From: Bacteroidales bacterium
GTDB taxonomy: Bacteria; Bacteroidota; Bacteroidia; Bacteroidales; Paludibacteraceae
Assembly (NCBI GenBank): GCA_015061115.1
Contig: SUXE01000006.1
Coordinates: 1 to 64,000, forward strand
Direction of reading: 5' to 3'
Length of the DNA stretch: 64,000 nt
Notes under the pieces: model-generated
What the model was told of the DNA's origin: nothing
What the model saw: only the letters and a program-made list of their open reading frames with translations
Database searches by the model: none
Made by a program: the position numbers and the translations under genes
Shown: piece by piece, positions 6,496-57,398 of the stretch
How positions within the stretch are numbered: position 1 is the first letter of the stretch
Layout: every line of letters begins with the position of its first letter

Positions 6496-7869
6496 TCAGA
6501 ATATATCTATGTATCGGCTTTTGTCTGCGGACATTAAAATTCTCCAATTTTGTGGATAAAGGTTGTTGGCTCTGCCGCCAAGATTCTTTACAAATCCGAT
6601 TGGCACATTTTTGTATGTCAGCATCAGCCATCCTTTTTTGTCGCTTTCCACCTCGATGTTGTCTTTCCTCAAAAATGCGATCGCTTTTTCCCAGTCGACT
6701 TCCTCTTTCTCAAAGAAATCTTTATTCACAATATTGCTGATGGCAAGATTGTGCTGAGGAATAATGTCTTTTCCTTTTTGGATGTAGACGGGGATTCCAT
6801 ATTGAAGAAGACGTAGGTTTTGATTCAAAAACTGTATCAGCTGCTCAAATTCGGTAGGGTAGGCTATTCCGTCTGCCACAGTGATAGATGAGTCGTCGAT
6901 CCATTTCATCACCTCAGCTGGAGTGGGTTGGCTGACATTTCCTTTGTTTCCTTTTTTCTTATCCTGCTTTGTGCGGATGGATATCTCGTCTTCCTGCTGA
7001 TTCTTGCGGAATGCGGCAATGTAAAATCCTTCTCCTTTTGTCTTGTGAGGATAGAAATGGTAGCCACATTTGTCTTTGGTTACTCCGCTATCTGCTGGAA
7101 AATCAATGTCTAACACGTCTGCTCCAAGTTCATCGGCAATCCATTGTGCATTCTCATCATCCTCATGCGGATTGAATGTACATGTGCTGTAGATTAGAAT
7201 TCCGTCTTCTTTCAAAGCAGGAAAAACATCTTTCAGGATTGTGCGTTGTCTGTCTGCACACATCTTCACATTGTCACGGCTCCATTCCGAAACCGCAACT
7301 TCGTCCTTTCTGAACATGCCTTCGCCTGAGCATGGCGCGTCGACGAGAATCAGATCAAACAATCCTGTCAGTTCAGTGAATGATGATGGCATGACGGAGC
7401 ATACGGCAGTGTTGGCGAATCCCCATTTAGACACGTTCTCACACAATGTCTTTGTGCGAGTCTTTACAACTTCATTGCTCAACAGAAATCCGTTTCCATC
7501 AAGCAATGATGCCAAATGCGTGGTCTTTCCTCCAGGTGACGCGCATAAGTCGAGCACAATAGGACTCTCGACTCCTGTCATATACTGTTTGTATACCTGT
7601 CCGACAGCCATTGAACTTGCTTCCTGCACATAGTATGCTCCTGCGTGGAATAGCGGATCCATAGTGAAGGTAGGACGGTCGTTTAGATAATAACCGTCTT
7701 CGCACCATTTGACCTTTTCCAATGAGCATTCTGTATCAATTTTACGTCTGTTCAAACGAATGCTTGATACTGGTTCTGTGGCCAATGCATCAATCAATTG
7801 TTGATGTTCGTTTGGCAAATACTCACGCAAGTCTGCAATGAAATCGTCAGGCAACTGTATGTTTTCCAC
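6496..7869 (-). CDS. RsmB/RsmF-family 16S rRNA (cytosine-C5)-methyltransferase
   Basis: SAM motif DLCASPGGKT; catalytic DAPCSGEG and YSTCT motifs; C-terminal extension as in RsmF/YebU. Confidence 0.85.
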   Translation of the reverse strand: MENIQLPDDFIADLREYLPNEHQQLIDALATEPVSSIRLNRRKIDTECSLEKVKWCEDGYYLNDRPTFTMDPLFHAGAYYVQEASSMAVGQVYKQYMTGVESPIVLDLCASPGGKTTHLASLLDGNGFLLSNEVVKTRTKTLCENVSKWGFANTAVCSVMPSSFTELTGLFDLILVDAPCSGEGMFRKDEVAVSEWSRDNVKMCADRQRTILKDVFPALKEDGILIYSTCTFNPHEDDENAQWIADELGADVLDIDFPADSGVTKDKCGYHFYPHKTKGEGFYIAAFRKNQQEDEISIRTKQDKKKGNKGNVSQPTPAEVMKWIDDSSITVADGIAYPTEFEQLIQFLNQNLRLLQYGIPVYIQKGKDIIPQHNLAISNIVNKDFFEKEEVDWEKAIAFLRKDNIEVESDKKGWLMLTYKNVPIGFVKNLGGRANNLYPQNWRILMSADKSRYIDIF

Positions 7870-16977: not shown

Positions 16978-17451
16978 ATGAATAAAGAAAGATTGTCAGA
17001 ATGGAAGTCATTTAATGACTACGAAGAAATAGTGTCAATAATAAAAAATGGCGGATTAAATGATTTTGTTGCAGGTAGAGTTCTAAAACAGGGAGGTTAT
17101 ACACAATCTCCAGGTGATGACATTACTCATGCGGGAATTGTCCTTATGTTTTTAGATGCAATAATGACAGAAGGAAATCTAACAAATCAGGAGATAAATG
17201 ATGCTTTGTCTAAACTTGAAATTTGTACTTTACTTGATGTATGGTTAGTTGTGTCTTATATAAGTGAGTATTTTGGAATTACAACTCTGTTTCATGATTT
17301 GATTCTTGAAATTAACGTTGATATGTTGTCTGAAAAAATTAGGACTTGTGATAAAACCTATCAACAAGATAGTGTCGTCCGAAACTTTATTGAGACTATT
17401 TCGAAGGAATATGGTTACAATGTGGTTCCCTCGTTAGACTCAATTGTGTGA
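16978..17451 (+). CDS. Hypothetical protein, paralog 1 of the tandem pair
   Basis: 157 aa. C-terminal 69 aa are identical to paralog 2. Confidence 0.7.
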   Translation: MNKERLSEWKSFNDYEEIVSIIKNGGLNDFVAGRVLKQGGYTQSPGDDITHAGIVLMFLDAIMTEGNLTNQEINDALSKLEICTLLDVWLVVSYISEYFGITTLFHDLILEINVDMLSEKIRTCDKTYQQDSVVRNFIETISKEYGYNVVPSLDSIV

Positions 17452-17635: not shown

Positions 17636-18109
17636 ATGAATAAAGAAAGATTGTCAGTATGGAAGTCAAAAAAAGACTACGAAAAAATAGTGTCAATAAT
17701 AAAAAATGGCAGATTAGATGATTTTGTTGTAGGTAGAGTTCTAAAACAGGGAGGTTATACTCAATCTCCAGGTGATGACATTACTCATGCGGGAATTGTC
17801 CTTATGTATTTAGATGCAATAATGACAGAAGGATATATAACAAATCAGGAGATAAATGATGCTTTGTCTAAACTTGAAATTTGTACTTTACTTGATGCAT
17901 GGTTAGTTGTGTCTTATATAAGTGAGTATTTTGGAATTACAACTCTGTTTCATGATTTGATTCTTGAAATTAACGTTGATATGTTGTCTGAAAAAATTAG
18001 GACTTGTGATAAAACCTATCAACAAGATAGTGTCGTCCGAAACTTTATTGAGACTATTTCGAAGGAATATGGTTACAATGTGGTTCCCTCGTTAGACTCA
18101 ATTGTGTGA
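17636..18109 (+). CDS. Hypothetical protein, paralog 2 of the tandem pair
   Basis: 157 aa. Eleven differences from paralog 1, all within the first 88 residues. Confidence 0.7.
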   Translation: MNKERLSVWKSKKDYEKIVSIIKNGRLDDFVVGRVLKQGGYTQSPGDDITHAGIVLMYLDAIMTEGYITNQEINDALSKLEICTLLDAWLVVSYISEYFGITTLFHDLILEINVDMLSEKIRTCDKTYQQDSVVRNFIETISKEYGYNVVPSLDSIV

Positions 18110-18260: not shown

Positions 18261-18848
18261 TTAAAATTGTGAAATAAAATGGTTTATCACATTCGGAATT
18301 GTCAGAATCGTGAATAACACTCCGAAGATGGCTCCTGAAATGTGTGCCTCATGACCTATATTATCCATGTTCTTCTTTGCCATGTATGAGGAATAGATAA
18401 GAAACAAAACCGCAAAAATTATCGCTTTTATCGGAATCACAAAGATATAGATCGTGCTGAATGGATTTATTAGAATAAATGAGAATAATATTGCGTTCAC
18501 TGCTCCTGACGCTCCAATTGCCGAGTATCTTGGATCATCTTTATGTTGGTATAGTGATATGAGCGACGACGCTGGAATAGAGAGTAGGTAGAATAATATG
18601 AACGACATCTCTCCATTTATAGCTGTGAATATTTGCTCCTGTGTCCTGCCGAAGAAATATAATGTCAGCATGTTGAAAAAGAGGTGTGTCCAATCAGCAT
18701 GGACGAAACCATTGGTTATCAGCCTGTAATATTCTTTATTGTGAACTACCTTGTATGGCTTGAATGACAATTTCTCAAACAACTCTTCGTTGTTGAATGC
18801 CTGATATGAAACAAGGCATGTTGCGGCAATGATGATGTATGTAATCAA
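18261..18848 (-). CDS. Rhomboid family intramembrane serine protease
   Basis: 195 aa, 6 TM; GASGAV (GxSG) serine motif and a downstream His. Confidence 0.75.
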   Translation of the reverse strand: MITYIIIAATCLVSYQAFNNEELFEKLSFKPYKVVHNKEYYRLITNGFVHADWTHLFFNMLTLYFFGRTQEQIFTAINGEMSFILFYLLSIPASSLISLYQHKDDPRYSAIGASGAVNAILFSFILINPFSTIYIFVIPIKAIIFAVLFLIYSSYMAKKNMDNIGHEAHISGAIFGVLFTILTIPNVINHFISQF

Positions 18849-18936
18849 AATTTAATCTTTTAGTTATAAAATGTTGAATGTTATTTGTTTGTGGGTGTTT
18901 TTGCGAGTAGCCGCCGCAAAATCGCCACATTGATAT

Positions 18937-19362
18937 TTAGCTTTTTTGGCTTATTGCCTCCAGTGTGCGGCTTAAAGATTTGACTGTGTCGCTAAGGTTG
19001 CTTTTGTCTTCTTGAAGCTGTGCCACCATTTCTCTGAGATCAGACAATTCTTTTTTGAGGCGATTTATTTCTTTTTCTCTTTCTTTATCTTCCGCTTCCT
19101 CCCAGCTTTGGGCAGATGCGTCTATTTTTGTCATAGTTCCTTCTCCATACAAAAGCCATTCTCTATTAAGTTCTGGAATTAAATTGCATAATCTATTTAT
19201 AAAGTCTTTAGGTTCGTCGACCTTTCCGTTTATAACTTGAGAAAATGACGACTCGTTTTGATATCCTAATTTGACACCTAAATCCTTCTGACTTGATACT
19301 ATACCGTTTTCCTTGCAGTATCTTATCAAACTTTTGAATCTATCTATCTTTTTCATACTCAA
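18937..19362 (-). CDS. HTH DNA-binding protein with a C-terminal coiled coil (cI-like repressor candidate)
   Basis: N-terminal HTH-like segment (SQKDLGVKLGYQNESSFSQVINGK); divergent from the downstream phage genes. Confidence 0.5.
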   Translation of the reverse strand: MSMKKIDRFKSLIRYCKENGIVSSQKDLGVKLGYQNESSFSQVINGKVDEPKDFINRLCNLIPELNREWLLYGEGTMTKIDASAQSWEEAEDKEREKEINRLKKELSDLREMVAQLQEDKSNLSDTVKSLSRTLEAISQKS

Positions 19363-19380
19363 TATATTATAAACATTTTT

Positions 19381-19431
19381 GTAAAGTCTTTATATTTTTC
19401 TTTGGATAGAATATAAAGTCTTTATATTTTT
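19381..19431. promoter_or_regulatory. Two 18-nt direct repeats (taaagtctttatattttt) in the divergent intergenic region; candidate operators
   Basis: Exact repeat at 19381-19399 and 19412-19431, between the HTH gene (-) and ORF 19516 (+). Confidence 0.4.
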
Positions 19432-19515
19432 GCATTGTCAAAATGAAACAAGTTGCTAAAATAGTTTAGCAATAAGTTACAAAATAAATAAACGGAATCT
19501 AAAAAAACAAGAAAT

Positions 19516-19911
19516 ATGACAAAAGAAGAATTTGAAACGTTGGTGGGCTACCCTGTAGCGGATCAAGAATACAAGCGAGCAATGGCAGTGTATATGGCTT
19601 GCTCTTGTAGCCTTGATGATTTTATTAAGGATTACAAAGCCCATAAATGTGACTTACTGCTAGATATAGCAGAAAGTCTAAACTTTGAGAAGAATCAAAA
19701 GGAACATGCGAACGACACATTGCTAAGTCTTGCCGAATGTATCATGTCTGAAGTGGAAGACGCTGGCGAAAATTGTGGTAAGCATCTGGCGACACTTAGA
19801 GACCACGCACGCATCGCGCTTGGCGCACGTCACTTCGTAAGACTATGTCTTGAAAAAGGCTATTCCCTGCAGGATGCGGATAGAGAATATCTTCTGAGAG
19901 CATTGTCTTAA
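19516..19911 (+). CDS. Hypothetical protein (position of an early-region cro/antirepressor-like gene)
   Basis: 131-aa ORF with no recognisable domain. Confidence 0.45.
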   Translation: MTKEEFETLVGYPVADQEYKRAMAVYMACSCSLDDFIKDYKAHKCDLLLDIAESLNFEKNQKEHANDTLLSLAECIMSEVEDAGENCGKHLATLRDHARIALGARHFVRLCLEKGYSLQDADREYLLRALS

Positions 19912-19922
19912 CTCAATCAATC

Positions 19923-20028
19923 CCCGTGTTTTTTTATGCTGTGAGGAATCACGGCTAAAAAATGGAAACAAAAGTGCTTTTCATACTGACTTATTTGAAT
20001 TAATGGGGGTTCGAATCCCCCCACGGGG
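19923..20028 (+). ncRNA. tRNA-like structured RNA 'Z': perfect 7-bp acceptor-like stem CCCCGUG/CACGGGG, canonical T-arm GGGGG-UUCGAAU-CCCCC, internal 7-bp GGAA-tetraloop hairpin
   Basis: Folding by eye. At ~106 nt it is too long for, and lacks the cloverleaf of, a canonical tRNA. Confidence 0.4.
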
Positions 20029-20166
20029 ACAATGGTAATCATTCTGTTATTTACAAATCTGGCGACAGCGGTCGCGCCCTGCTATTGCTTGTGAAAGTAA
20101 AATGCAGGTTGGTGAAACTAAAATCATTTTTTTAACTGGCCCCTCCACGGGTTGGCGGGGCAAAAT

Positions 20167-20318
20167 GGTGGGGAAGATCAACGGTTGATTCCGTGGAAAG
20201 AATTGCAGACGAGGTTCAGCGTCCCGTGTATATCTGGAATCTCCTAAAGTTTGGCGGTCTGCAATAGCGTCGACACGGCCTAGGACTGAAAGCGGTTCGA
20301 CTCCGCACCCCATCACTA
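20167..20318 (+). ncRNA. tRNA-like structured RNA 'A': acceptor GGUGGGG/CCCCAUC, T-arm AGCGG-UUCGACU-CCGCA, discriminator A
   Basis: All 7 acceptor pairs form, including G-U. A conserved 26-nt motif (cccYccacgggttggcggggcRaaat) lies immediately upstream, as for RNA B. Long internal pairings (TTGCAGACG/CGTCTGCAA). Confidence 0.45.
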
Positions 20319-20613
20319 AGCCCGTGAGGGTCGTCCAGAATACATGTTATAAAATAAGACCGCCTTACGGGTTAGGGCGGTGACAAGGGGGCAACATGAG
20401 GCCAGTGTAGCAAGGAAGCACAGCGTTCCTGCTTGGCCTGAGACACTGGTAGGATGTGTTTGTGGCTGGGATTACCCTGTATAAAAGCCTGCAAGTCACA
20501 GACGGAGTTTCGATTACTTCTGCTCCCACAAAAGCCCGTGAGGGTGCTAATTATTGTTTTTTGTTATTAAATGTTAAAAAGCAAGCCCCACCACGGGTTG
20601 GCGGGGCGAAATC

Positions 20614-20713
20614 GGGAGGAAGGCGACGGCAGCAGAGAACGTGTCAAGCTGATCATTCAGCGAGTCCGGAAAATTTGACCCTGAAAGCGGTTCGACTCCG
20701 CAGACTCCCACTC
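20614..20713 (+). ncRNA. tRNA-like structured RNA 'B': acceptor GGGAGGA/GACUCCC, same T-arm as A
   Basis: The 5' 24 nt are homologous to RNA C (GGGAGGAAGGCGACGGCAGC vs GGGCAGAAGGCAACGGCAGC). Acceptor stem has 5 bp plus conserved tandem G.A/A.G. Confidence 0.45.
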
Positions 20714-20774
20714 TGTACGATCTTTTTGATTATATATTTCTCAGTCGGCATTTGTGAAAACCCCGACTGCAACC

Positions 20775-20867
20775 GGGCAGAAGGCAACGGCAGCTGACTA
20801 TTGTCAAGTGATAAGACGACAATAGAACCTCGGTCTGAAAGTGGTTCGACTCCACAGATGCCCACCA
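20775..20867 (+). ncRNA. tRNA-like structured RNA 'C': acceptor GGGCAGA/GAUGCCC, T-arm AGUGG-UUCGACU-CCACA, discriminator A plus encoded CCA
   Basis: Compensatory changes relative to B at acceptor positions 4:69 and 5:68. Internal 8-bp/12-nt-loop hairpin instead of an anticodon arm. The 3' end abuts the excisionase gene. Confidence 0.5.
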
Positions 20868-20881
20868 AAAAAGTAACGCTT

Positions 20882-21217
20882 ATGAGTATAGAAGAAAGAA
20901 TTGATCGTCTCTCCGAAATGGTGAGCGAAAACAACAGGATGCTGGCTCTTTTGCTTGGCGAGTCAACACCACAGGTAGAGCCAAGAAAGTACATGACTGT
21001 CGCTGAGGCTAGCAGGGTGACTGGCTTGTCTGCACGCTCTTTGAGAATTTATTGTAATCGTGGAGATATAAAAGTCAGCAGGGTAGGCAAATATATATTG
21101 CTGCTCACGGAAAGCCTTTATGCCTATATCGAAAGCACGGCAAGACCGACGACAAAGGATAGGGTAAATGAAGTTTTACGTAACACAGACAGATGTCATG
21201 GGACAAGCGGATTTTAA
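20882..21217 (+). CDS. Excisionase-like / MerR-type HTH DNA-binding protein
   Basis: YMTVAEASRVTGLSARSLRIYCNRGDIKVSRVGKYILL is typical of xis-like HTH domains of Bacteroidetes mobile elements. Start chosen at MSIEERIDR; the ORF-track start at 20801 would overlap RNA C. Confidence 0.6.
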   Translation: MSIEERIDRLSEMVSENNRMLALLLGESTPQVEPRKYMTVAEASRVTGLSARSLRIYCNRGDIKVSRVGKYILLLTESLYAYIESTARPTTKDRVNEVLRNTDRCHGTSGF

Positions 21218-55962: not shown

Positions 55963-55990
55963 GGGCAGTGTGACAACTGCCCTTTTTTAT
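55963..55990 (+). terminator. Rho-independent terminator (GGGCAGT-gtgaca-ACTGCCC plus T6)
   Basis: Seen directly; overlaps the integrase 3' end, so it is likely bidirectional. Confidence 0.55.
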
Positions 55991-57147
55991 ATGTGTAAAT
56001 CAGGTATTTTTTTGATTGCGTCCTGTCTGTTACGGTCTAATACTTTTGCGTAGATTTGGGTCGTCCGGATGTCTGAATGTCCCAGCAGTTTAGAAACTGT
56101 GTATAAGTCAGTGTCTAGCGTTATCATTAGTGTCGCAAAAGTATGTCGCCCTGAATGGAATGTTAATTTTTTTGTTATCCCTGCAGCAGCTGCCCAATTG
56201 CGAATGTAATTGTTTGTACATTCGTGAGATGGAAGACGTGGAAAAACATAATCTTTGTTTTTTTTTCTTTCTCCCATCAAGCGAGCCGCTTGCTCATTTA
56301 TGTCAAGATATTGCAGTCCTTTTGTTTTTTGCTGACGAAATGTCAACCGGGTAAGTCCGTTGATATTGCTGACTTGATCCCACGTTAAATTCATAATGTC
56401 AGATCGACGTAACCCAGTAAGACAGGAAAATAAAAAACAAGTTTTTATGTTTTCTATAGGGCATGGAGTATCAACAACTGCATTAAGCTCTTCTAACGTC
56501 AGATAAGTTCTTTCGGCTTCTTCGACTTTAGGCAATTTGACAAAGACACATGGATCATCATTAATAAGTTTATGCCTGTAAGCCTCTTTAATTATAGTTC
56601 TAAATTTAGAAAAATATAAACTTTGGGAGTTTGGCTTTAGAGTTGAACTTAAATATTTAAAATTGGTTTGCCCCTTATTAAGGAATTTAACAAATCCTTC
56701 CACAAACTTAAAGTCGATTTCTTCAAGTAGAATGTCTTTGCCGTTGAGATATGTGTACATTTGGCGATATGCAGACTTCATTGTACATTTGTTTCCAAAC
56801 GAGTTGGCTTTGTTTATCTTTTCCTGCCACAATTCAAGCAGATATATTTTTTTACTTTTGTTGAGGCTAAACTTGTTTTCTTGCATTTCTGTAAGTCGTC
56901 GTGATTTTACAATTTCTGCAATTTTCCAAGTTTCTTTATTCTTTTTTTTGTCTTCTTTGGTTAGTTCTGGAATAAGGTACAGCCTAAGTGATTCCTCATG
57001 TCTTTTGCCTCTATAGTAATAAGATAAAAAAATTGATTTTACACCATCTTTTCTATCTCTCAATCGGAATTTCACAAAATCTTTGTTCATAATTTTCTTT
57101 TTTTGTGTGGCGTTTTGAGGCAGTTGTTTATTTAGAATAAAAGCCAC
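55987..57147 (-). CDS. Tyrosine-type site-specific integrase (Bacteroidetes phage-integrase family with N-terminal arm-binding domain)
   Basis: C-terminal HSGRHTFAT...LLGHSDIRTTQIYAKV (R...HxxR...Y catalytic motifs). Confidence 0.9.
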   Translation of the reverse strand: MAFILNKQLPQNATQKKKIMNKDFVKFRLRDRKDGVKSIFLSYYYRGKRHEESLRLYLIPELTKEDKKKNKETWKIAEIVKSRRLTEMQENKFSLNKSKKIYLLELWQEKINKANSFGNKCTMKSAYRQMYTYLNGKDILLEEIDFKFVEGFVKFLNKGQTNFKYLSSTLKPNSQSLYFSKFRTIIKEAYRHKLINDDPCVFVKLPKVEEAERTYLTLEELNAVVDTPCPIENIKTCFLFSCLTGLRRSDIMNLTWDQVSNINGLTRLTFRQQKTKGLQYLDINEQAARLMGERKKNKDYVFPRLPSHECTNNYIRNWAAAAGITKKLTFHSGRHTFATLMITLDTDLYTVSKLLGHSDIRTTQIYAKVLDRNRQDAIKKIPDLHI

Positions 57148-57260: not shown

Positions 57261-57398
57261 AGTATATAAACGTGAGTTTTGTAATCATGATTTCTTGGTA
57301 TTTTAAGACAAAAGTATATAATAATTTCTTTTTTGCAATCAAGTTGCATTTTCCTTCGTCTACTTTTGTTTCAGTTTAAGAATTAAAAGGAAAATGTT

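Follow-up and report, generated by a model that had tools for sequence, protein, structure and literature searches.

A covarying family of putative tRNA-like RNAs arrayed in the early region of temperate Bacteroidales phages

Five tRNA-shaped units in one prophage

The stretch analysed here, referred to as the window, comprises 64,000 nucleotides (nt) of contig SUXE01000006.1 (positions 1–64,000; assembly GCA_015061115.1) from a Bacteroidales bacterium of the Paludibacteraceae. Within a prophage in this window, five transfer RNA (tRNA)-shaped units, designated Z, A, A', B and C, lie on the same strand between positions 19922 and 20867. They share a seven-position acceptor stem closed by the unit's own 5' and 3' ends, a T-arm with a 4–5-bp stem and the loop UUCGANU, and a discriminator A followed by C-N-A. 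Most also possess a small hairpin, D-arm-like and capped by an (A)CGG loop, and, at the position of the anticodon arm, a structured insert of variable length. Scanning the whole window on both strands for T-arms accompanied by complementary ends placed the five units within 0.95 kb and gave two weak matches in the other ~127 kb (both strands). The T-arm motif CTGAAAGYGGTTCGACTCCRCA occurs three times in the window, always on the plus strand and inside the array; chance expectation, with three mismatches allowed, is 0 in 100 shuffles. It is very probable that these units encode structured tRNA-like RNAs. The original prediction, made from the sequence alone, had described four elements here; all of its described features are present and the four are real, but the array holds five, A' (20387–20528) having been missed.

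19922–20029, plus strand: unit Z, acceptor strands CCCCGUG (19922–19928) and CACGGGG (20022–20028), discriminator A at 20029
20167–20315, plus strand: unit A, acceptor strands GGUGGGG and CCCCAUC (20308–20314; one G·U pair), discriminator A at 20315
20387–20528, plus strand: unit A', acceptor strands GGGGGCA and UGCUCCC (20521–20527; one G·U pair), discriminator A at 20528
20614–20710, plus strand: unit B, acceptor strands GGGAG-GA and GA-CUCCC (20703–20709), discriminator A at 20710
20775–20867, plus strand: unit C, acceptor strands GGGCA-GA and GA-UGCCC (20857–20863), discriminator A at 20864, CCA at 20865–20867

Unit Z starts 10 nt past the stop codon of the preceding open reading frame (ORF) and has neither an upstream hairpin nor the (A)CGG hairpin. 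Its T-arm is GGGGG-UUCGAAU-CCCCC (20005–20021), its minimum free energy fold closes the ends (z = -3.7), and its sequence is identical in six related loci (L054–L059). Unit A contains the D-like hairpin GAUCAA-CGG-UUGAUU, a ~90-nt insert closed by CCGUG/CACGG and the sequence CUGAAA ahead of its T-arm (20291–20307); in a homologue, the third unit of locus L055 (L055_u3), the acceptor is GGGGGGA/GACCUCC and the insert-closing stem covaries (GCGCGG/CCGCGC). The T-arm of unit A' is GGAGU-UUCGAUU-ACUUC (20504–20520). In unit B the 5' acceptor strand is followed by AG, GC-GACGGCA-GC, an insert closed by GUCAA/UUGAC, CUGAAA, the T-arm (20686–20702) and A. Unit C continues with AG, GC-AACGGCA-GC, an 8-bp arm with a 12-nt loop, CUGAAA and the T-arm (20840–20856; GUGG/CCAC), and ends 14 nt before the next start codon. 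B-type units thus laid out have five Watson–Crick acceptor pairs plus a tandem G·A, and a 4-bp T-stem with an A·A mismatch at 49:65. The proposed end pairings of Z, A, B and C hold, A including one G·U pair, and C is the only window unit with an encoded CCA, as had been stated. The description of the elements as a T-arm plus acceptor stem only, with no D-arm, is only partly accurate: A, B and C carry an (A)CGG-loop hairpin at nt 9–25 with a covarying stem, and most units also have a stem-closed insert at the anticodon-arm position.

A stable hairpin (-11 to -15 kcal/mol) ends 4–6 nt upstream of four of the five units (A, A', B and C), and a mini-hairpin with a GNRA loop follows each of A and A'.

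20139–20161, plus strand: hairpin GCCCCUCCA-CGGGU-UGGCGGGGC, linker AAAAU, 5 nt before A, -14.6 kcal/mol
20318–20331, plus strand: GNRA mini-hairpin AAGCCC-GUGA-GGGU, 3 nt after unit A
20360–20380, plus strand: hairpin CCGCCUUA-CGGGU-UAGGGCGG, linker UGACAA, 6 nt before A', -13.8 kcal/mol
20532–20545, plus strand: second copy of the GNRA mini-hairpin, after unit A'
20585–20607, plus strand: hairpin GCCCCACCA-CGGGU-UGGCGGGGC, linker GAAAUC, 6 nt before B, -15.4 kcal/mol
20742–20769, plus strand: hairpin CAGUCGG...CCCGACUG, linker CAACC, 5 nt before C, -11.1 kcal/mol

The 26-nt motif previously noted at 20139–20164 and 20585–20610 is present, but it is a hairpin, with equivalents 5' of A' and C; the sequence AAGCCCGTGAGGGT, said to occur twice nearby, was found at 20318 and 20532. 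The stem of the hairpin at 20360 covaries with those at 20139 and 20585. Across related loci, 30 units were examined, and in 26 of them a stable hairpin, frequently with a GNRA or CGGGU loop, ends 1–6 nt before position +1; the four units without one include those directly after an ORF stop (Z and unit u1 of L009). In L001, the hairpin in front of a unit (6806–6831) and a terminator hairpin (6956–6990) have the inner sequence GGUUCGUGAGAAUAGG in common, and their outer stems differ in a compensating manner (ACUGUC/GGCAGU vs GCUCACU/GGUGAGC). The flanking hairpin is therefore a conserved motif and not an arbitrary stem-loop. The GNRA mini-hairpins recall lambdoid boxB/nut hairpins in size and loop, and a similar hairpin, AGCCC-GCGA-GGGU, is located just 3' of a unit in L003/L006 (AGCCCGCGAGGGU). 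The 110-nt spacer between Z and the first hairpin (20030–20138) contains possible stems (GGCGAC-AGCG-GUCGC and CCUGC...UGCAGG) and is 97–100% conserved in L054–L059.

Covariation and whole-unit turnover in the family

Homologous units were recovered by exact-pattern scans and by a search with the flanking proteins. They derive from IMG/VR contigs (L001, L002, L003, L061), from GTDB metagenome-assembled genomes of Paludibacteraceae, Prevotella and uncultured Bacteroidales (L004–L006), from metagenome contigs (L034, L035, L041, L044, L046, L052, L053) and from loci with an identical copy of the 131-amino-acid (aa) protein encoded upstream of the array (L054–L059). The exact core motif is present in four IMG/VR contigs and three GTDB genomes. 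In the commonest (B/A) layout, the 5' half reads NNNNN-GA-AG, followed by a short (A)CGG-loop hairpin and an insert of 15–130 nt that is usually stem-closed, and the 3' half reads CUGAAA-GNGG-UUCGAMU-CCNC-A-GA-N'N'N'N'N'-A-CNA.

Covariation was assessed in an alignment (A2) of 16 distinct units from independent Bacteroidales phage contigs. Acceptor pairs 1–5 are paired in all 16 units, with two to five pair types per position (GC, CG, AU, UA, GU), T-stem pair 2 is CG, GC or UA, and 7 of the 11 pairs show changes on both sides. The resulting covariation score of 0.483 compares with 0.129 after shuffling (0 of 500 shuffles reach the observed value) and with 0.045–0.087 when the registers are slid by 1–3 columns; the compensatory covariation suspected from the window is thus strong among homologues. 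RNAalifold, unprompted, predicts the same acceptor and T helices. Positions 6:67 form G·A in 13 of the 16 units and 7:66 form A·G in 15, and the acceptor register is further supported because, where these positions differ, they become Watson–Crick pairs (unit A of the window, L004, L035). In the hairpin at nt 9–25, a GG-containing loop is flanked by stems that are wholly different between units (GCGC/GCGC, UGUC/GACA, GGGCA/UGCCU, CCACC/GGUGG, GAUCAA/UUGAUU, AGGCAGA/UCUGCCU). This hairpin is a D-arm analogue which, in principle, would be able to form a tRNA elbow with the T-loop. The RNA is assigned to the plus strand because of the G·U pairs and the T-loop consensus, in line with the proposal of a phage-encoded, structured tRNA-mimic family on this strand of a temperate phage. 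Directly after the discriminator, all 16 aligned units have a C; CA follows often but not in every unit, and a full CCA tends to be encoded by the final unit of an array.

These data bear on whether the units are decayed tRNA pseudogenes or DNA-level repeats, such as remnants of attachment (att) sites or recombination debris, devoid of RNA function. Fragments of tRNAs do build up at the att sites of phage genomes, and the common T-arm serves as a recombination breakpoint between arrays (see below). However, both-sided compensatory changes keep three helices across distant phages, the G·U pairs are confined to one strand, duplication of a 3' fragment is ruled out by the matching 5' strands, and the att core GTAATCA is found elsewhere (~18.85 and ~57.37 kb), all of which makes such an origin extremely improbable.

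A covariance model, R1, scores B/A-type units at 47–86 bits (A 51, B 80.9, C 85.6), Z at 15 bits and A' at 7 bits. Because Z and A' score low, the array appears to mix at least three divergent types of the same architecture. R1 has no match in eight T4 tRNAs, and in loci with ~50 jumbo-phage tRNAs it yields only short, T-arm-sized partial matches. The insert varies from 15 to ~130 nt and has no conserved loop at the anticodon-arm position. In the smallest units (67–71 nt; L055_u6, L003_u4) it is a linker of ~15 nt, and elsewhere it forms hairpins whose loops measure 6, 8 or 12 nt, or structures of several helices that reach ~130 nt. One unit with an A-type insert (L055, 3863–4005) combines the alanine identity pair G3:U70 with the T-loop variant UUGGAAU; the pair may be due to chance, and none of the five window units has it.

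Phages with 91–100% identical flanks carry different arrays, which differ by whole units:

Window, L054, L056, L059: Z-A-A'-B-C
L057, L058: Z-A-A' plus one different unit
L055: six units, including two with acceptor GGAGG/CCUCC, an A-type insert on another acceptor (G3:U70) and a 67-nt terminal unit

Recombination between units is one source of this variation, because homology between differing arrays resumes inside the common T-arm. A protein-coding array was rejected, as overlapping ORFs (e.g., 20456–20797 on the plus strand and 20653–20994 on the minus strand) are broken by whole-unit replacements between near-identical flanks. Gene callers left the array ORFs uncalled in four of six related places and called a different ORF in one; in L059, the call of the excisionase (xis)-like gene extends 5' into unit C.

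Prophage context and the early operon

The prophage occupies ~18.85 to ~57.37 kb of the window. Its attL and attR have the common core GTAATCA, located at ~18846 (18840–18850) and ~57372 (57366–57375). The circular relative L054 joins both prophage ends (L054 2300–2330), and in circular relatives of ~38 kb the ends meet between the integrase and the repressor gene.

18261–18848, minus strand: rhomboid-family gene, its start adjoining attL
18937–19362, minus strand: cI-like repressor gene, divergent from the array operon
19401–19432, plus strand: Bacteroidota-type promoter-like site from a pattern scan, with -33 TTTG at 19401 and -7 TATTTTTG at 19425
19516–19911, plus strand: 131-aa ORF, phrog_15742, unknown function
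20882–21217, plus strand: HTH_17/excisionase-like gene, 111 aa, directly 3' of the array
55987–57147, minus strand: integrase

The att core is ~1 kb and ~36 kb from the array and every unit has its own complementary 5' strand, so that att remnants were rejected as an explanation, and the earlier view that the units are not att-site duplicates stands. The array fills a gap of 970 nt (19912–20881) between the 131-aa ORF and the excisionase-like gene. The latter matches Pfam HTH_17 with 31 bits and PHROG excisionase/recombination directionality factor families with E ~2e-4, and is followed by further genes with HD-domain, DnaD-like, DnaC-like and PAPS-reductase-like products (Pfam, PHROGs). The site at 19401/19425, located 5' of the 131-aa ORF, is the only full Bacteroidota-type promoter match in 19300–20900 and is the presumed early promoter, on the strength of its pattern, for the 131-aa ORF, the array and the xis-like gene. 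The array probably rides on the early transcript, because the pattern scan found no Bacteroidota-type promoter match inside it and the plus strand between the promoter-like site and 21300 has only one weak terminator-like site, at 20067 within the array.

This arrangement is not peculiar to the window. The order of repressor, divergent early operon, units and HTH gene recurs in L002, L005, L006/L009 and L035, and in L004 the units lie 5' of a DNA methylase gene. L001 has two units at the end of a transcription unit, followed by a U-tract hairpin (terminator) and no downstream gene. In the loci examined, the units are intergenic, on the same strand as the flanking genes and located in early or replication modules of temperate Bacteroidales phages, and the last unit of an array ends 14–40 nt before the next start codon. 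A homologue of the 131-aa ORF is found upstream of arrays in several related phages. An obligate link between array and protein was rejected, since several homologue loci are without units and several units are without a nearby 131-aa protein. True tRNA-Cys(GCA) genes of 79–80 nt are found in this early region of two related phages that have no tRNA-like units, located two ORFs past the 131-aa homologue (L016 3932–4010, L019 2818–2897).

Some further features lie at the prophage borders. In attP, a copy of AAATCGCCAC flanks the core on either side (in the prophage, one copy lies close to attL and the other close to attR), and the sequence is a possible arm-type site for the integrase. An 80-aa ORF called at the att region of relatives is probably spurious. 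The host DNA left of the prophage contains two tandem, almost identical 157-aa ORFs (16978–17451 and 17636–18109).

Comparison with known RNAs and possible roles

In all five units, as in canonical tRNAs, a 7-bp acceptor stem is combined with a T-arm (5-bp stem, 7-nt UUCRANY loop) and a discriminator, with the B-type departures given above. ARAGORN called no tRNA or transfer-messenger RNA (tmRNA) gene in the 64 kb or in the unit-carrying loci (L016 and L019 apart), and Rfam 15 had no match at the gathering threshold in the window or in 10 related loci, other families such as ribozymes and GOLLD/ROOL included. At E ≤ 10, the region 19800–21000 produced T-loop-sized fragments of tmRNA models and a few chance matches, and the tRNA model RF00005 had no match there even at this threshold. 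Both checks had been proposed with the original prediction, whose claim that the elements are not canonical tRNAs or tmRNAs is borne out. A distant-mode blastn search of 50,697 phage records in INPHARED with the 1-kb array and a 56-nt core consensus gave no match, and a full-text literature search returned no description of this RNA family. In a catalogue that lists 10,006 candidate structured RNAs of viruses, tRNA-like candidates are referred to in a general way only (PMC10690425). With no match in Rfam or INPHARED, the sequence family is undescribed.

Could the units nevertheless be unusual functional tRNAs, or tRNAs interrupted by introns, which standard detectors miss? The acceptor stem, the T-arm, the discriminator A in most units and the C at position 74 are tRNA-like, and true tRNA-Cys genes are located in the same early region of L016 and L019. 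In addition, a 77-nt unit of L002 (1395–1471) has a 5-bp stem and the 7-nt loop UUCCAGG (U33, CCA, G37) in the right place; it is the only family member with an anticodon-like arm and was not called by ARAGORN. Yet the detectors and RF00005 are silent on the units, the anticodon position is taken by anything from no arm to ~130 nt instead of a standard anticodon arm, and the arms that do occur there all differ. The inserts are also too short and unconserved for group I introns and match no Rfam intron family. Functional tRNAs of either kind are accordingly very unlikely.

The closest known kind is that of the phage tRNA-like stable RNAs exemplified by T4 species 1 RNA (rnaC), described as of unknown function (PMC9697503). 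The statement that no such family is known applies to the sequence, and the kind itself has this precedent. T4 rnaC, whose architecture was read from NC_000866 (70908–71046), is a phage-encoded, stable RNA of 139 nt and, with rnaD, belongs to the "small stable RNAs" of the T4 tRNA cluster. Like the units, it has ends that form an acceptor-like stem with a tandem mismatch (CGAUUCG/CGUUUCG, two U·U), AG at positions 8–9, a T-arm directly 5' of the 3' strand (CCGGG-UUCGAAU-CCCGG) and two long hairpins in place of the anticodon arm. Sequence homology is not detectable: a search of the T4 tRNA region with R1 gave no hit at E ≤ 10. In T4, a virulent coliphage, rnaC is part of a true tRNA cluster and is expressed late, whereas here 1–7 paralogues per array lie in the early operon of temperate Bacteroidales phages, each unit generally has an upstream hairpin, and a tandem G·A is conserved in most B-type units. 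New here are arrays of hairpin-linked units in early operons of temperate Bacteroidales phages.

Other systems resemble the units in part. The c4 RNA of P1/P7 and the CI RNA of P4 are small operon-embedded RNAs from the immunity or early region of temperate phages, in which mimicry of the acceptor and T domains leads to excision by RNase P. They are single-copy, in contrast to the arrays described here, the Rfam family for C4/CI immunity RNA (RF01695) does not match, and they act by antisense pairing within the same transcript. Such complementarity was not found for the units: in the 64-kb window and the early operon, the longest matches and the duplex energies are no better than those of shuffles. 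These results weigh on the idea of tRNA-scaffolded effector RNAs, in which the insert would be the working part (an antisense arm or an aptamer) and the tRNA-like frame would provide processing and stability. In its favour, the location recalls c4 and CI, and the inserts are stem-closed and structured, the A-type being conserved with a closing stem that covaries between the window and L055. Against it, besides the missing complementarity and the lack of a C4 match, the shortest members are almost without an insert and the inserts have no common conserved loop. An effector function is therefore rather doubtful.

In the tRNA-like domain of tmRNA, as in the units, an end-closed acceptor stem and a T-arm are combined with a GG D-loop analogue and a long insert, and there is no anticodon. 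Unlike tmRNA (260–400 nt), the units measure 70–150 nt, mostly lack G3:U70 and have no tag reading frame or pseudoknots; tmRNA was rejected because the Rfam matches cover only 15–17 nt of the T-arm with 7.6–12.7 bits, against gathering scores of 47–84. Replacement of the anticodon arm is also the principle of engineered tRNA-scaffold RNAs, which are artificial. YrlA has a tRNA-like module to which it owes its folding, its stability and its recognition by tRNA enzymes, and in which the anticodon arm is replaced (PMC4201824). The ends of YrlA form a Ro-binding stem and those of the units an acceptor stem; YrlA was rejected, there being no Rfam match and no Ro/rsr protein among ten neighbouring products (Pfam, PHROGs).

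Further precedents link tRNA-like elements to the processing of a larger transcript. In eukaryotes, an embedded tRNA-like element in MALAT1 or MEN-beta recruits RNase P or RNase Z and thereby defines the end of the neighbouring RNA. Cleavage by RNase P in front of the MALAT1-associated small cytoplasmic RNA (mascRNA) forms the MALAT1 3' end, and neighbour ends of this type are protected by an adjacent stable structure and then an A-rich tract. The tRNA-microRNA-encoded RNAs (TMERs) of murine gammaherpesvirus 68 are viral arrays of tRNA-like units linked to hairpins. These systems are eukaryotic or herpesviral, depend on RNA polymerase II or III and, in the case of mascRNA, involve a near-complete cloverleaf; the layout of the units is only analogous.

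The reading favoured here, with a probability of roughly one half, is that the tRNA-like RNAs encoded by the array are cut out by RNase P and RNase Z of the host. The array would be transcribed within the polycistronic early RNA, host RNase P would cut at the 5' side of each acceptor stem, and RNase Z or 3' exonucleases together with the CCA-adding enzyme would finish the 3' side, releasing stable tRNA-like RNAs of 70–150 nt. The same cuts would divide the early transcript, leaving upstream fragments that end in a hairpin 4–6 nt before the cut and an xis-like mRNA with a short A-rich leader. Excision by tRNA-processing enzymes is suggested because the conserved features are all read by such enzymes, namely the 12-layer acceptor/T stack, the T-loop/D-loop elbow (GG loop, most units), the discriminator and C74, and because the units seem to have no promoters of their own. 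The insert of 15–130 nt has no conserved loop and would therefore fit a region that a processing enzyme ignores. By analogy, the precedents of P1 c4/P4 CI, mascRNA and the TMER arrays, as well as the architecture of T4 rnaC, also speak for excision.

The released units might serve as transcript punctuation or as trans-acting decoys, and several observations weigh against excision with simple punctuation as the full account. Punctuation would need no five tandem units without intervening ORFs, and it leaves unexplained both the conservation of the core (GAAGGCRACGGCAGC ... CUGAAAG-T-arm-AGA) between Prevotella and Paludibacteraceae phages and the array differences between near-identical phages. 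The L001 units, with a U-tract hairpin and no gene on their 3' side, are more like a dedicated small-RNA gene. The protective hairpin is missing precisely where it would be most wanted, in front of units right behind an ORF stop (Z, L009 u1), and a hairpin 4–6 nt upstream could hinder RNase P.

A decoy role would account for the tandem units, the conserved core and the turnover of cassettes. As decoys or sponges, the RNAs would sequester a host factor that reads tRNAs at the acceptor end or the elbow, the most interesting candidate being a tRNA-targeting anti-phage effector (toxins that modify or cleave acceptor ends, tRNA nucleases). Without an anticodon they would spare decoding, and their capacity and specificity would be adjusted through the size of the array and the diversity of its acceptors. 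Several tandem copies with different acceptor stems, placed early in the first transcript upon induction or infection, fit this possibility, as do the retention of exactly the top half of a tRNA with loss of the anticodon and whole-unit turnover of the sort typical of arms-race loci. The L001 units, ending at a terminator like stand-alone small-RNA genes, point in the same direction. On the other hand, no defence or toxin partner was identified, the data fit binding and mere processing alike, the family looks rare as judged from its exact core motif, and turnover could reflect neutral unequal recombination between common T-arms. Titration in trans is thus a tentative proposal, well behind excision as such. 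Equally speculative is its broader form, in which arrays of anticodon-less tRNA mimics would constitute an unrecognised class of phage counter-defence or host-takeover RNAs, saturating or misdirecting a host reader of the tRNA acceptor or elbow, with unit number and acceptor under diversifying selection.

The tRNA genes of phages are currently being reinterpreted as a means to counter immunity that cleaves tRNAs, and hardly any work has been done, since T4 species 1 and 2 were sequenced in the 1970s, on RNAs reduced to the half of a tRNA that enzymes recognise. The locus offers a covariation-supported family with many natural variants and minimal members of 67 nt, natural "swap" experiments between near-identical phages and, for the Bacteroidales prophages of gut and rumen, a defined genomic setting. 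Excision by RNase P and RNase Z, the shaping of early phage mRNAs and action in trans on host tRNA-binding factors thereby become testable. The counter-defence reading, if true, would also hint at what T4 species 1 RNA, an orphan for 50 years, might do. For annotation, ~1 kb of "empty" intergenic prophage DNA may be dense with RNA genes that ARAGORN and Rfam miss.

Hits in the tRNA arrays of jumbo phages were set aside as a different element, which shares with the family only the UGAAAG-T-arm-AGA segment, in the form UGAAAG-[GYGG-UUCGAGU-CCRC]-AGA. It was observed in metagenome contigs (L021 2830–2945, L024 ~1190–1300, L030, L037 4905–5000, L042 2056–2175, L045) and has no Rfam match at the gathering threshold. 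Its D-arm looks normal (UCCG-UAAUGGCG-CGGA), the sequence ACCGACGGG is conserved, and a hairpin of its own follows the T-arm in place of the acceptor strand. It sits in large phage tRNA arrays, that of L042 comprising ~35 tRNAs and a tmRNA.

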